In this document: in pieces, positions 25,262 to 29,258 of the stretch
How positions within the stretch are numbered: position 1 is the first letter of the stretch
How the letters are laid out: every line of letters starts with the position of its first letter
The notes under the pieces: model-generated
What the model saw: only the letters and a program-made list of their open reading frames with translations
What the model was told of the DNA's origin: nothing
The model's database searches: none
Made by a program: the position numbers and the translations under genes
Assembly: GCA_963713865.1 (NCBI GenBank)
Contig: OY970208.1
Span: forward strand, 1,632,001 to 1,696,000
Reading direction: 5' to 3'
Length of the DNA stretch: 64,000 nucleotides
Source of the DNA: an uncultured candidate division Zixibacteria bacterium
GTDB taxonomy: Bacteria > Zixibacteria > MSB-5A5 > RBG-16-43-9

Positions 25262-26008
25262 ATGATTACTTATTTTTATGTAGAGCCAAAAAATGTAGAC
25301 AAAAATTTTCTAAAGATCGAAGGGGAGGAAGCTAAACATATCTGTCAGGTATTGAGAAAAGGTGAAGGGGAGGTTATTGAGGCAGTGGATGGCGAAGGGG
25401 TAAAATATCAGGTCCTGATTACCAACACCGGTAGAGATTGGGTGCAGGGTAAGATTCTTACTCAGATCAGAAAAGAGAATGAGCCTTTAACTCATCTGAC
25501 ATTAGCTCAGGGCTTGATCAAAGGGGTGAGAATGGATTTTTTAGTAGAAAAGATTACAGAGATTGGAGTCTTTTCTATCATACCTCTTATAACTGAAAAA
25601 AGTGTGGTTAAATTGGAAAAAGATAAAAGAGAGATTGCGAGGTTAAATCGGTGGAAGAGGATTGCCATCAGTGGGATGAAACAATCTTTACGTTCAAGAT
25701 TTACTGAGATTCAAAAACCGACTTTATTTCAAGAGCTTTTATCAAAAGTCAGGGGATATGATTTAGCTCTTATAGCCTGCCAGACAAAAAGATCACAATC
25801 TTTAAAGGGGATTATTGATGCAAAAAAAAGATTAAAGAATATCTTACTTTTAGTTGGTCCGGAAAGTGGATTTACCCAGGGAGAGTTAGACCTTGCTTTA
25901 AAATCTGGTGTTATCCCGGTCTCTTTAGGACCAAGAAGGCTTCGTTCTGAAACTGCCGGGATCGTGTTTTCCTCTCTGGTATTGTATGAATTAGAAGATT
26001 TAGGATGA
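25262..26008 (+). CDS. rsmE: 16S rRNA m3U1498 methyltransferase
   Basis: HICQVLR, EKITEIGV, VGPESGF, LGPRRLRSETA. Confidence 0.93.
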   Translation: MITYFYVEPKNVDKNFLKIEGEEAKHICQVLRKGEGEVIEAVDGEGVKYQVLITNTGRDWVQGKILTQIRKENEPLTHLTLAQGLIKGVRMDFLVEKITEIGVFSIIPLITEKSVVKLEKDKREIARLNRWKRIAISGMKQSLRSRFTEIQKPTLFQELLSKVRGYDLALIACQTKRSQSLKGIIDAKKRLKNILLLVGPESGFTQGELDLALKSGVIPVSLGPRRLRSETAGIVFSSLVLYELEDLG

Positions 26009-26105
26009 TTTTTCTGGTAATATATCTGACAGACTTCCATTTTGTTAACCCCGCGTAGCCGAGCCTTTAGGGCTCGGCGGAGGTCTAAAACCTACGCTAC
26101 ATTTT

Positions 26106-26561
26106 CTACTTTGATATAAACCAGGTATAGAGATTCTTGCGGGCTAATATAAGCCATAAGACAAAGGGGATGCACCAGTTCAAAAAATAGAGGCACAAGG
26201 ATACGGTTAAGCCTGCTTTTGAGGGGTTTTCACTCAGTCCGTAGATTAAAAAAATGAGTTCAGCTATCAATATCTGCCATAAGAAGATTAGAAAAAGCCC
26301 CAGGAGAAGTTTTTTTACTATCTTTTGAGATTTTATCCCCGGGATGATTAAAAGAAGGGAGATAAAGGGCAAGTAATTGTAAAATAAAGAAGTTAAAAAA
26401 GGGAGAACGATCAGGTCTATGCCGAGGAGATTAAGAATTGGGGGAACTAGGTAGTCGAAGAAAAGAAAATAATAATATTCCCCTTTCCAGTACCAGAGGG
26501 CGAATAAAATCAAGGAAATTGCTGAAAATTTTAAGATAAAGGGGAGAAACTTCTCTTTCAT
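26106..26561 (-). CDS. Exosortase-associated membrane protein
   Basis: About four hydrophobic helices, directly downstream of the exosortase gene. Confidence 0.6.
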   Translation of the reverse strand: MKEKFLPFILKFSAISLILFALWYWKGEYYYFLFFDYLVPPILNLLGIDLIVLPFLTSLFYNYLPFISLLLIIPGIKSQKIVKKLLLGLFLIFLWQILIAELIFLIYGLSENPSKAGLTVSLCLYFLNWCIPFVLWLILARKNLYTWFISK

Positions 26562-26589
26562 AGAATCGTAGTGCGACCCTTTCAACCGC

Positions 26590-26617
26590 GTAGAGACGCA
26601 TAGCGATGCGTCTCTAC
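26590..26617. repeat. GTAG REP palindrome
   Basis: GTAGAGACGCAT-AGCG-ATGCGTCTCTAC; a related copy at 13039 contains the selB stop. Confidence 0.8.
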
Positions 26618-26621
26618 ATCG

Positions 26622-27198
26622 CTAAAATCTTTCGGATTTTACTATCTTCTCTATCCATAGAATCCAGGTACAAAGAATGATTAATATCAAAGCTACCTGC
26701 CAGAAATATAGATGCAAAAACTCAAAGGCATCCGGTCGATAATTAGAGATAACTGCTATAAAAACCATCCTTATAATGTTGATCAAAAATATAAACGGAA
26801 TCCCAAAAAGAGTACCCCAGAGCTTCTTTTTAAGGCTGGATGGATAAGCTAACATACCTAATAAGAAGATGAACATCTCATATAACCCGGTGCACTCAAC
26901 CACAATTTCAACATTGAAATTTTTCATATTCAAAAATTGCCCGCTGACTTGGGTATCCATTCCAAAAAGATTTAAGACCAGAACCGACTACATAAGCAGT
27001 GGCAAACACTAATTTTTCACTAAAGGGATATAAAAGGTTATCCCGGGTCAGGGAGAACAAAATGGTGAAAGGGATTAATAGCCCAATGAATAAAAGCACA
27101 AACCTAAAAATTGGCTTATAAGCTTTTCCTTTCTTTTCATCTTTCTGAATGATTTCTTTTTTATGGTCTGAGGCAGAACCTTTGAGCTTTTTTTTCAT
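26622..27198 (-). CDS. xrtH: Exosortase H-like (IPTL-CTERM-associated), split by a +1 frameshift near 26982
   Basis: Cys (VECTG), Arg (NIIR) and His (LHLYFWQ) triad; removing one T at minus-strand GGTTCTG fuses ORFs 26908-27198 and 26622-26960 as AYVVGLVLNLFGMD. Confidence 0.75.
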
Positions 27199-27317
27199 AC
27201 GGTATAAGATTCAAAGCATAACCTCGATTTGTCAATGTTATTTTTGTTTTATGTAGCGGAAGGACATCAAGCTCTTGACGCTTCAGCCTTTCCATCTCTT
27301 TCCTTCCACACATAATT

Positions 27318-27347
27318 TTAAGGGCTGGCCTTTCGACCAGCCCTTAA
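27318..27347. terminator. Strong hairpin after the IPTL-CTERM gene
   Basis: TTAAGGGCTGG/CCAGCCCTTAA 11-bp stem; a U tract only on the plus strand, so direction is uncertain. Confidence 0.45.
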
Positions 27348-27365
27348 GTTTTTTGCCTACACCAC

Positions 27366-27836
27366 TTATGCAGTTACAGGTTTTCTCCTCATCAAAAGAT
27401 AGACCCCGGCTACAATAATCAAAGCAACCAGAATGATCATACCCCACTGGGTTAGGCTTGGAGTGGAATATTTTTTATTATATGCAGCATCACAGGCGCT
27501 GACTTTACGGCCTATGTCATCTACTAAGCAGGCAGTTACACTGACAGCACCACAGGGTCCTGTCCATGTCTTACTCCACTTTCCAGAGCCATTTGTTACG
27601 ACGACCTGCTTAGTTTCGATTAAACCGCCCTGGCTGTCTAAGTTCTCTAGATCAACGTGATAGTTATTTCCTACATTATTAGCTTTCCCGGATACCCTAT
27701 ACAAGCATTGATTATTTCCCAGATCTTTCTTAATAGCAATTGTGATAGAAACAGTGGGTGCTTGTGCCATGAGAGTTCCCCATGCTATTGCCACAAAAGC
27801 AAGTGCTATAAAAATGGCACACATTTTTCTAAACAT
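27366..27836 (-). CDS. Secreted protein with IPTL-CTERM sorting signal
   Basis: Signal peptide; four Cys in the mature part; C-terminal TPSLTQWG + TM helix + RRK; GGAGGA RBS before ATG 27836. Confidence 0.85.
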   Translation of the reverse strand: MFRKMCAIFIALAFVAIAWGTLMAQAPTVSITIAIKKDLGNNQCLYRVSGKANNVGNNYHVDLENLDSQGGLIETKQVVVTNGSGKWSKTWTGPCGAVSVTACLVDDIGRKVSACDAAYNKKYSTPSLTQWGMIILVALIIVAGVYLLMRRKPVTA

Positions 27837-27897
27837 AGCTTCCTCCATCTATGAATTGGCCTAAAGTTACTTTATTGAAAATAATCATCGGAAGAAA

Positions 27898-28617
27898 TCA
27901 AAAGGAAGATATAGGTGGTCCACGCAACTGGGGAATTAGGAAGAACTTTTGAGAGAAAAGCTTGTGGTTCTCGGCAAAACTCCAAAATATTTCTTTAGTG
28001 GTAAACTTTATTCCGGTAGCTTTAAAGATTTTAACAGCATGTTCAATTATTTTTACTAATAGTGAATTAAGAAGAACTACTATGAAAGAAATGACTCCAA
28101 AACCAAACAGGGTTACAAGTCTCAGGAAAAAAGGAGTTGAAGGTGTGGAGTGAGTAAGCAAGCCGCTGGTGTAACCAAGCTTAATGAGTCCTAATTCAAA
28201 GAAAACCCACAGGACAGATACAATAATCGGACTAAATCCAAAATACTGTTTCGTCAACCCTACTGTCCAGCCCCAGAGGGCAAAAAGGAGGGTTCCGCCT
28301 ATAATCATTAAGATGGCTGAGGCAGGAGTAACCAAAAGAGCATCCAGGCTCCAGAAGGTAAAGAAGGTAAGACCGAGTAGAAACCCCAAACGAAAAGCTT
28401 CTCTGGTAGAAGCCTTATTGATTCTCCAAAGAAAGGGAAACAGTGCAACGAAAGAGAAATACCAATAGCCGGGGAATAGATTGGCTACTAATAAAAGAAG
28501 GGCACTTGTGCCTGAATATAGAAAATCTTCTGCCAGCTTGGAAAAGGAGTGCCCAAGTTCTAAGGAACCGGACAGACAATTATTACCTCTATGGCACCTT
28601 TTTGGGGGTAAAAACAT
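27898..28617 (-). CDS. Membrane protein resembling the N-terminal TM domain of apolipoprotein N-acyltransferase, no nitrilase domain, C-terminal RGPP
   Basis: SFVALFPFL..AFRLGFLLGLTFF..LWVFFE..LFGFGVISFIVVLLN resembles Lnt-N; ends LIPQLRGPPISSF. Confidence 0.6.
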   Translation of the reverse strand: MFLPPKRCHRGNNCLSGSLELGHSFSKLAEDFLYSGTSALLLLVANLFPGYWYFSFVALFPFLWRINKASTREAFRLGFLLGLTFFTFWSLDALLVTPASAILMIIGGTLLFALWGWTVGLTKQYFGFSPIIVSVLWVFFELGLIKLGYTSGLLTHSTPSTPFFLRLVTLFGFGVISFIVVLLNSLLVKIIEHAVKIFKATGIKFTTKEIFWSFAENHKLFSQKFFLIPQLRGPPISSF

Positions 28618-28958
28618 CTGATCCCCTTCTAATTCCTTACAAATGGTTTTAACCTTTTACATTCAGATATCCTCAGGTAAATACCATAATAGGACTGCAT
28701 CAAATTCGTAAGAAAATAAATATATTAATCTAAATTTACTCTTTATATACTTTACATTTTCAGGGAGCTTTTGTCAAGTAAAATCTTTATTTTTTTCGTA
28801 TTTATCATAAAGAAAGAGTTAACTATATATTTTAGAAGGCGTTATCTATCTTAGAATTCATTTCAAAGAAAGATTTAATTATGAATGTATTAGATGGCTC
28901 TACTAACCGATTTACAGGCAACAGGTTAAAAAAATGGTGCGATGGGGCAAATTTTTAC

Positions 28959-28987
28959 TTGACATCAATAGTATGTTATTATATAAT
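28959..28987 (+). promoter_or_regulatory. Sigma70 promoter of the rpsU operon
   Basis: TTGACA-17nt-TATAAT exact consensus. Confidence 0.8.
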
Positions 28988-29060
28988 AAAAATTTAAAAA
29001 AGAAGATATGCAAGGATATGAAACAATTTATAGAAGAGATGAAAGGGGGTTAGAGATGAG

Positions 29061-29258
29061 ATGACCGTTGTTAAGATTCGAGAGGATGAGAGCTTCGAGA
29101 AAGCTTTACGGCGTTTTACCAAGTCCTGCGAAAGATCAGGGATCCTGGCAGATATAAGAAAGCATCAGCATTTCGAGAAGCCGTCCGAAAAGCGGAAAAG
29201 GAAAATGGCGGCAGCCAGGCGAAAAAGCCGGCGTAGATTTTATGAGGAACAGCTTTAA
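29061..29258 (+). CDS. rpsU: 30S ribosomal protein S21
   Basis: ESFEKALRRF..HFEKPSEKRKRK. Confidence 0.96.
   Translation: MTVVKIREDESFEKALRRFTKSCERSGILADIRKHQHFEKPSEKRKRKMAAARRKSRRRFYEEQL

Follow-up and report, generated by a model that had tools for sequence, protein, structure and literature searches.

A 64,000-nucleotide stretch of the genome of an uncultured candidate division Zixibacteria bacterium (GenBank assembly GCA_963713865.1, contig OY970208.1, positions 1,632,001 to 1,696,000; hereafter the window, with features numbered from its first letter) encodes on its minus strand a small membrane protein that resembles the N-terminal domain of the apolipoprotein N-acyltransferase Lnt and carries the motif Arg-Gly-Pro-Pro (RGPP) close to its C-terminus. 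We refer to its gene as gene A, to the next gene, which encodes a secreted protein with a C-terminal sorting anchor, as gene B, and to the genes in the position of gene B beside other family members as cargo genes. Gene A belongs to a family of short proteins that is probably a new family of translation-arrest leaders. Our favored reading, to which we assign a probability of about 0.55, is that the R[AG]PP motif of the family forms a translation-arrest module that is released by membrane insertion and sets expression of the cargo gene in cis. Taken by its parts, stalling of ribosomes at the motif appears likely, judging from its sequence and from analogy with characterized peptides, and we see even odds that the stall regulates the cargo gene.

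Stalling is likely because the architecture of the protein fits the published class of RAPP/RGPP arrest peptides, and we infer the stall, its release by force and its effect on gene B in the following form. By analogy with ApdA, ApdP and CruR, the ribosome would stall at Pro234/Pro235, its P site occupied by CCA (27918-27916) and its A site by CCT (27915-27913). During the stall the linker would fill the exit tunnel and the last membrane helix, oriented N-out/C-in, would have newly emerged. The stall would then be relieved by the pull that integration or folding of the hairpin formed by helices H5 and H6 exerts on the chain, and its duration would set, in cis, the expression of the co-transcribed cargo gene. 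The cargo would be a secreted surface protein with an IPTL-CTERM-type anchor, processed by the exosortase XrtH. The original prediction, made from the sequence letters, had located the open reading frame (ORF), the RGPP codons, the stop, two pyrimidine tracts and the ribosome-binding site of gene B correctly in every case (Table 1). The product of gene A ends in ...LIPQLRGPPISSF* (translation of 28617..27898, minus strand), and its C-terminal stretch is also given, from the 239-residue translation, as ...FFLIPQLRGPPISSF.

The motif was conserved among homologs. A protein search with gene A gave 153 matches; the 120 listed were 132-321 residues long and nearly all had LNT_N as their only domain, and 117 of these 120 carried R[AG]PP near the C-terminus, the others having RDPP, RSPP or HAPP. 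We also read 45 family genes from 41 loci (40 fetched loci and the window), and each encoded R-x-PP (25 RAPP, 18 RGPP, 1 RVPP and 1 RTPP). In the most distant branch (E-values of 1e-8 to 1e-23), the linker around the motif was not alignable, and R-x-PP was present in all 13 copies (nine R[AG]PP, three RSPP and one RDPP), bringing the total among family genes read from loci to 58/58. Representatives of clusters at 50% identity had R-x-PP in 138 of 149 cases; most of the remaining 11 end before or inside the linker and look truncated. Conservation of a C-terminal R[AG]PP, proposed earlier as a check, was thus borne out, and the tail beyond the motif was not conserved.

Within an alignment of 67 sequences (mean column identity 31%), the sole invariant columns were P234 and P235, and the LNT_N-type domain contained 21 columns conserved at 90% or more. 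The codons of the motif differ freely at synonymous sites among the 45 family genes, which indicates that selection acts on the peptide. To describe the surroundings of the motif we used an ungapped profile of 160 unique sequences, anchored on the motif itself, which all 160 bear. In this profile, information content was 4.2-4.3 bits at the Arg and the two Pro positions and fell to at most 0.8 bit from the next residue onward; the tail beyond the motif was 0-52 residues long (median 7), and one protein ends at RGPP.

The profile stayed in register from -50 to +3, reaching back to the LLNSLL of the last helix at -50. A conserved Asn of that helix lay exactly 48 residues ahead of the Arg in 233 of 294 unique sequences, and the hydrophobic core ended 34-40 residues ahead of the P-site Pro in 268 of them (mode 36). 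Insertion-dependent release by an N-out/C-in segment is described as requiring a defined distance (Fujiwara 2024, PMC10987492); the last helix of gene A has this orientation, and its spacer to the motif is nearly invariant.

R[AG]PP occurred four times in the 5,695 six-frame ORFs of at least 60 residues in the source genome, and gene A was the only case near the C-terminus of a small ORF. The four occurrences compare with 7-13 expected in the proteome, numbers too small to show avoidance. For two of the four matches (942199 and 1516889, outside the window), the motif is at position 24 of its ORF, and both ORFs contain KAGFRKAQRAPPL, probably because of a repeated DNA element upstream of the true starts.

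An Lnt-derived membrane domain in a family of short proteins

Gene A was described in the original prediction as a polytopic Lnt-N-like protein without a nitrilase domain, and this description held. Its LNT_N match scored 44 bits against a cut-off of 27.1, Pfam models found no nitrilase domain, and none of the NCBIfam models covers the protein. The AlphaFold2 model had a mean predicted local distance difference test score (pLDDT) of 78, with helices to residue 201 followed by a low-confidence tail in which residues 204-227 fell below 50 and are predicted to be disordered. Structural comparison with VIA placed residues 19-181 of the model on residues 1-198 of Lnt (best Z 13.4, root-mean-square deviation 4.2 over 136 residues), and the first 17 matches were Lnt throughout, at 11-14% identity. 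The top 19 Foldseek matches were also all Lnt, yet with weak E-values (0.15 or higher), and the family profile matched no solved structure by sequence.

The model and its alignment with Lnt predict six membrane helices in gene A, which ends 48 residues past H6. Lnt is described as having eight helices and two cytoplasmic termini, with H1-H6 forming a cylinder and a periplasmic nitrilase domain bridging H7 and H8 (Wiktor et al. 2017). Because H1-H6 are retained, this topology places the tail of gene A in the cytoplasm, and the lysine-rich sequence past the last helix agrees with such a placement. As modeled, the family keeps exactly the H1-H6 cylinder of Lnt and is without H7, the nitrilase domain and H8, and a predicted cytoplasmic linker of about 40 residues ends in R-A/G-P-P. 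Since H7, the nitrilase domain and H8 are absent, the catalytic triad is missing.

That gene A holds just the N-terminal domain of Lnt is what would be expected of a decayed Lnt gene fragment with an accidental RGPP. The source genome, a single 2.72-Mb contig, contains a second LNT_N match inside a 512-residue ORF, and this ORF is a true Lnt. The short form was present in 65 of 201 sampled genomes of the phylum, with as many as 7 copies in a genome. When 1.84 billion cluster representatives were searched with the family profile, 156 had E-values of 1e-30 or lower (clusters at 50% identity), and the 150 listed of these 156 were all 135-291 residues long. Hits to the profile numbered 1,126 in all. 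With the RGPP-type motif conserved as well, we rejected decay, to which we leave a negligible probability; the homologs are not full-length Lnt, and gene A belongs to a family of short LNT_N-only proteins.

Among the matches listed for the protein search, the named homologs were all called Zixibacteria. A narrower alignment yielded 12 related loci, in records titled Zixibacteria or 'uncultured Ignavibacteria'. The Protein Atlas lists LNT_N-only clusters labeled Chloroflexota, Bacteroidota and Aminicenantota.

Cargo genes, the exosortase and neighboring features

Gene B starts 61 nt past the stop of gene A on the same strand, with a GGAGG ribosome-binding site. Its ATG (27836-27834, MFRKM...) lies 2 nt past GGAGGAAG. 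The C-terminus of its product is TPSLTQWGMIILVALIIVAGVYLLMRRKPVTA; the IPTL-CTERM scores lie under the cut-offs, at 15.9 against 20.8 for Pfam and 14.2 against 20.5 for TIGR04174. The same arrangement recurred across the family, as the next gene encoded a signal peptide and a C-terminal P-[ST]-[LM]-[ST]-x-x-G, helix and basic cluster beside 39 of the 45 family genes. One of the remaining six is masked by N, and five are without the anchor, including three giant proteins of one genome. Signal peptide and sorting anchor were also found in the next gene for 10 of the 13 distant copies, or 49/58 overall, so that synteny with sorting-signal genes, another of the checks proposed earlier, proved to be conserved. 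At E-values of 1 or lower, 36 of 44 cargos matched the NCBIfam XrtH-recognition region and 22 of 44 matched IPTL_CTERM (best 1.8e-7).

The passenger domains of the anchored cargos were unrelated in sequence and size (156-944 residues). Gene B orthologs in the same genus showed 28-31% identity, yet had a common sorting tail. In a related strain (runs X1 and X2), the gene B passenger and the A-B spacer (27446-27900) were swapped for 517 unrelated letters, and gene A and the sorting tail flanking the swapped stretch were 94-97% alike; the related-strain contig, from two sediment runs, kept gene A to its stop with 47 differences in 801 bases. The replaced passenger, set between gene A and the sorting tail, suggests a surface-protein cassette that can be exchanged. 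A further exchange was seen in the same related-strain contig of run X1, in which 27160-27364, from gene B to the exosortase and including the hairpin between them, was replaced by 454 other letters.

Some loci carried tandem leader-cargo cassettes, with two copies in L058, three in L070 and two in L071. The three leaders of L070 are divergent and stand before secreted proteins of 732-1,609 residues that have no IPTL-type anchor and end in Cys-rich tails. Four consecutive anchor-bearing genes follow one leader in L071.

The original prediction took gene A to be a candidate arrest leader of an IPTL-CTERM/exosortase operon. The link to sorting stood, through the synteny with cargo genes and through co-occurrence with XrtH. 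The XrtH model matched 87 of the same 201 genomes, comprising 65/65 with the family and 22/136 without it; related genomes are not independent, so that this is a pattern and not a statistic. The scope was narrower than such an operon: the exosortase gene lies behind a strong hairpin, is frameshifted in this assembly and is adjacent in only about half of the genomes. By comparison of coordinates, a family copy lay within 6 kb of XrtH in about 34 of 65 genomes, and the exosortase was inside the fetched 8 kb in about a quarter of loci. As far as sequence goes, the conserved unit is leader plus cargo, with the exosortase gene outside it. A promoter-like site 5' of gene A and the hairpin 3' of gene B likewise indicate that genes A and B are probably one unit, with the exosortase behind the hairpin. 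The hairpin (27318-27347) is terminator-like on both strands, with a good T run solely on the plus strand.

The exosortase of the window passes the exo_archaeo signature (71.6 bits against 23). Its XrtH score of 73.9-77.3 compares with a cut-off of 86, and its archaeosortase B score is higher, at 91.4 against 150. Its gene is split into two overlapping ORFs, and the same-genus orthologs are intact at 187 and 196 residues. Related-strain contigs in three runs (X1, X2 and X4) have no extra base at 26982. As this base is absent from the intact orthologs and the related-strain contigs, the split reflects either an error of the assembly or a frameshift specific to this strain. Another gene of the exosortase family occurs in a 297-residue ORF (129207-129491, outside the window). 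To our knowledge, the acceptor and partners of the exosortase pathway are not yet known.

Downstream of the exosortase, the gene E product is 89% and 66% identical to its positional counterparts in L033 and L034, two loci of the same genus, and more distant loci have a different protein of 223-233 residues in its place. Short G+C-rich palindromic elements flank gene E at 26589-26620 and 26045-26100. The first of these appears in separate 335-base contigs and as a depth spike in run X4, and it looks like a dispersed repeat.

Table 1. Features of the gene A region, in window coordinates.
Feature	Position	Strand	Basis or remark
Promoter-like site TTGACA-17-TAAAGT, 10/12, about 130 nt 5' of gene A	28749..28777	minus	consensus match only
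Gene A, LNT_N-only membrane protein, 239 aa, C-terminal RGPP, candidate arrest leader	27898..28617	minus	ORF and Pfam
LNT_N domain, residues 38-186	28060..28506	minus	Pfam PF20154, 44 bits; model aligned with E. coli Lnt H1-H6
Last transmembrane helix, about residues 167-191, bearing conserved LLNSLL	28045..28119	minus	model helix 163-201
Linker of fixed length, residues 192-231, predicted cytoplasmic and disordered	27925..28044	minus	pLDDT, motif-anchored profile
RGPP codons CGT GGA CCA CCT, residues 232-235	27913..27924	minus	sequence
Tail ISSF and TGA stop, without conservation	27898..27912	minus	stop at 27900-27898; 4 residues beyond motif
A-B spacer, with ribosome-binding site GGAGGAAG (27839-27846) and UUCUUCC (27890-27896)	27837..27897	minus	not conserved in related loci or strains
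Gene B, 156-aa secreted protein, signal peptide and C-terminal sorting anchor	27366..27836	minus	start at 27836 favored by ribosome-binding site; 27848 possible
IPTL-CTERM-like sorting signal: TPSLTQWG, transmembrane helix, RRK	27369..27464	minus	NCBIfam/Pfam scores; kept in related strain
Hairpin, 13-bp G+C-rich inverted repeat directly 3' of gene B	27318..27347	minus	no clear T run on minus strand
Exosortase, XrtH-like, split into 96-aa and 112-aa ORFs	26622..27198	minus	one extra base at about 26982
Gene E, 159-aa membrane protein	26106..26585	minus	no Pfam/NCBIfam family; same place in same-genus loci

Arrest weighed against other readings

The points that weigh against cargo control by arrest come from the RNA between the genes, from the motif and linker, and from the cargo genes. 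The RNA bears on the mechanism first put forward for this locus, in which CUUCCU and UUCUUCC (CTTCCT at 27908-27903 and TTCTTCC at 27896-27890, minus strand) block the ribosome-binding site GGAGGAAG by pairing until a ribosome stalled at RGPP releases it. AUCUUCCUUUUGA is indeed paired with the ribosome-binding site in the minimum-energy fold of 27825-27935. CUUCCU lies about +10 to +15 nt from the P site, hence inside the footprint, and in 8 of 45 loci the ribosome-binding site is predicted to pair mainly with the footprint region (share above 0.3). Once the footprint is removed, however, UUCUUCC pairs with the same site at -10.6 kcal/mol, so that the second pyrimidine tract takes over from the first, and pairing in the window goes from 0.73 free to 0.77 with the footprint masked. 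Across the 45 loci, mean predicted pairing of the ribosome-binding site and start codon was 0.53 free and 0.51 stalled, and only two loci lost more than 0.2 when the footprint was masked; folding with and without the ribosome, which had been suggested as a check, therefore gave no relief in the window or in the 45 loci. Both tracts are absent from L033 and L034, the whole spacer is replaced in the related strain, and between 58 and 354 nt separate the motif from the start codon of the cargo gene. The folds were no better than those of shuffled sequences (z +0.97 and +0.28; +0.10 for the spacer of the window). The predicted CUUCCU pairing is thus present in the minimum-energy fold and no stabler than in shuffled sequence (z +0.97), and the freeing of the site by a stalled ribosome found no support, so that we consider this mechanism very unlikely. 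These are equilibrium folding models, and a kinetic mechanism of ribosome-binding-site opening lies beyond them.

A different picture emerged for part of the family: 12 of the 45 motif-to-cargo spacers folded far better than shuffles (z below -2, down to -5.8), for example in L040, L037, L062, L066, L070 and L058. Part of the family may therefore use RNA structure for control, and the window copy (z +0.10) does not. A search of 25900-29100 against Rfam at E-values of 1 or lower gave no match. Among the sequencing runs listed as containing the locus, none was of RNA.

The motif and linker raise their own difficulties. Three of the 149 representatives have lost the Arg (LSPP or KDPP). RSPP variants occur in 10 of the 149 and in three of the 13 distant copies, and A132S is given as a non-stalling variant of ApdP (PMC10951233). 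In the main subfamily, the linker is moderately conserved 5' of the motif (W at -20, K at -8, Y at -6 and P at -3), which could mean a role in the finished protein. R-x-P-P and its preceding residues would then be a cytoplasmic motif, for example for docking of the exosortase or a partner, with at most a Pro-Pro pause resolved by EF-P. Such a motif would accommodate the conserved linker residues and the RSPP, RDPP, RVPP, RTPP and HAPP variants, and the family is tied to XrtH by distribution and position, as a structural partner would be. Conservation, however, ends exactly at the second Pro, with a free tail length and one protein that stops at RGPP; distant copies keep R-x-PP alone and have lost the surrounding residues; and the region is predicted to be disordered. 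RAPP/RGPP arrests are moreover reported to be refractory to EF-P, and 7/7 C-terminal cases stalled (PMC12992588). On balance we regard a docking motif as unlikely.

Further points concern the cargo genes. Five of the 45 leaders precede proteins without an anchor. Conversely, the second IPTL-CTERM protein of the genome, which has a canonical tail (DIPTLSEWG..., 1350682-1351500, outside the window), stands alone and is without an Lnt-like leader, and we found no ORF of at least 90 residues in the approximately 1 kb upstream of its gene. The logic of a Sec/YidC monitor, moreover, is not obviously suited to a cargo gene.

Pausing on XBP1u targets its own mRNA to the membrane, and a stall at R[AG]PP may be real and yet serve insertion of the leader, giving time for H5-H6, or location of the two-gene mRNA at the membrane beside the translocon, where the cargo would be made, the amount of cargo being unchanged. 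The evidence of motif, spacing and synteny would be the same, and we found no conserved structure that sequesters the ribosome-binding site. The six-helix domain also exceeds, in size and in conservation (21 columns at 90% or more), what targeting would require, which suggests that it has a function of its own beside each cargo gene. Set against this, the RAPP-type peptides characterized in PMC12992588 and PMC10951233, as presented there, all regulate a downstream gene; the 12 highly structured spacers hint at control at the RNA level; and we found no description of mRNA tethering by a bacterial arrest peptide. We consider a stall of this kind, without effect on cargo amount, rather unlikely.

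Arrest that sets cargo expression in cis remains our favored reading, and we tentatively extend it to a possible checkpoint, in which each cargo gene would have its own Lnt-derived six-helix sensor. Stalling at R-A/G-P-P, this sensor would retain the bicistronic mRNA at the membrane and make cargo synthesis depend on the condition of the sorting pathway, the membrane or its lipids. Were this so, ribosome arrest peptides and exosortase sorting would be linked for the first time, and the sensor would be the first arrest peptide with a polytopic domain of enzymatic origin. Leader and sorting tail, both conserved, would then frame a hypervariable cargo, and the whole would act as an exchangeable cassette for surface proteins that shares a single form of translational control.

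Comparison with known systems

RAPP-type arrest peptides were reportedly a subject of work by Sakiyama in 2021. RAPP/RGPP arrest peptides have recently been shown beyond Sec/YidC genes, and the present family would add a candidate phylum and the poorly understood exosortase pathway. Its spacer is fixed, and at 50% identity its natural variants form at least 156 clusters, which makes them suited to tests of release by membrane-insertion force. Whatever the role of the motif, the strict co-occurrence with XrtH makes the family an uncharacterized candidate component of IPTL-CTERM sorting.

The search of the literature agreed with the original prediction that no arrest peptide linked to an exosortase had been described. 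We found no link between the exosortase/IPTL-CTERM system and an arrest peptide or Lnt-like protein, and nothing joining an arrest peptide with apolipoprotein N-acyltransferase, or Zixibacteria with an exosortase. IPTL-CTERM itself came up in a single paper. The main texts of the 2024 and 2025 arrest-peptide surveys, including PMC12992588, do not mention Lnt, exosortases or Zixibacteria, and their source-data gene lists may hold the family.

On the cargo side, comparison is with the XrtH/IPTL-CTERM system (TIGR04177, TIGR04174 and NF033207): the cargo C-termini match the XrtH recognition region and an XrtH-like exosortase is adjacent, whereas the window's own scores lie under the curated cut-offs and its Lnt-like partner has no NCBIfam model. 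With Lnt (E. coli structures 8b0k and 5n6l), gene A shares LNT_N and the predicted H1-H6 fold; lacking the catalytic domain, it does not count as an Lnt.

MifM (upstream of yidC2 in B. subtilis) and SecM (upstream of secA in E. coli) share with gene A a layout in which a spacer separates a membrane or secretion segment from an arrest site at the C-terminus, a candidate site in the case of gene A. They are released by pulling force, and we propose the same for gene A; a narrow spacer is common to MifM (median 54, PMC10987492) and the gene A family (mode 36). The genes downstream of MifM and SecM, however, encode insertion or secretion machines in a feedback loop, whereas that of gene A encodes a cargo with a sorting anchor. 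Their ribosome-binding sites lie in a stem opened by the stalled ribosome, and no such conserved stem was found for the gene A family in the 45 loci. Because its target is not the machinery, the family is not a SecM/MifM-type monitor in the strict sense.

The family compares most directly with the RAPP/RGPP peptides, represented by ApdA, ApdP, CruR and seven proteins of S. lividans (PMC10951233, PMC12992588). RAPP and RGPP are reported to support arrest in four peptide contexts and to be enriched near the C-termini of small secretory or membrane proteins upstream of diverse genes (PMC12992588, Fujiwara 2025). According to the same report, seven of seven tested S. lividans proteins that combine a C-terminal RAPP/RGPP with a downstream gene in the same direction stalled, in vitro and in vivo, and six of the seven have predicted localization signals; in the CruR stall, the two Pro codons occupy the P and A sites. 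Gene A shares with these peptides a length of less than 300 residues, membrane or secretion segments, a downstream gene in the same direction and a motif with only a few residues after it, and the S. lividans set includes four-helix membrane proteins upstream of functionally linked genes. Unlike them, it shows no sequence relation to the class, has a six-helix enzyme-derived domain and an exosortase cargo downstream, and occurs in up to 7 copies per genome. At the level of sequence, the family agrees with the RAPP/RGPP class in every feature that defines it, and a stalling function is predicted on that basis. The 2025 report (PMC12992588) had already described the general class, in which RAPP or RGPP stands close to the C-terminus of small membrane proteins encoded ahead of diverse genes. 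New are the sensor domain derived from an enzyme, the connection with exosortase sorting and the leader-cargo cassette present in multiple copies.

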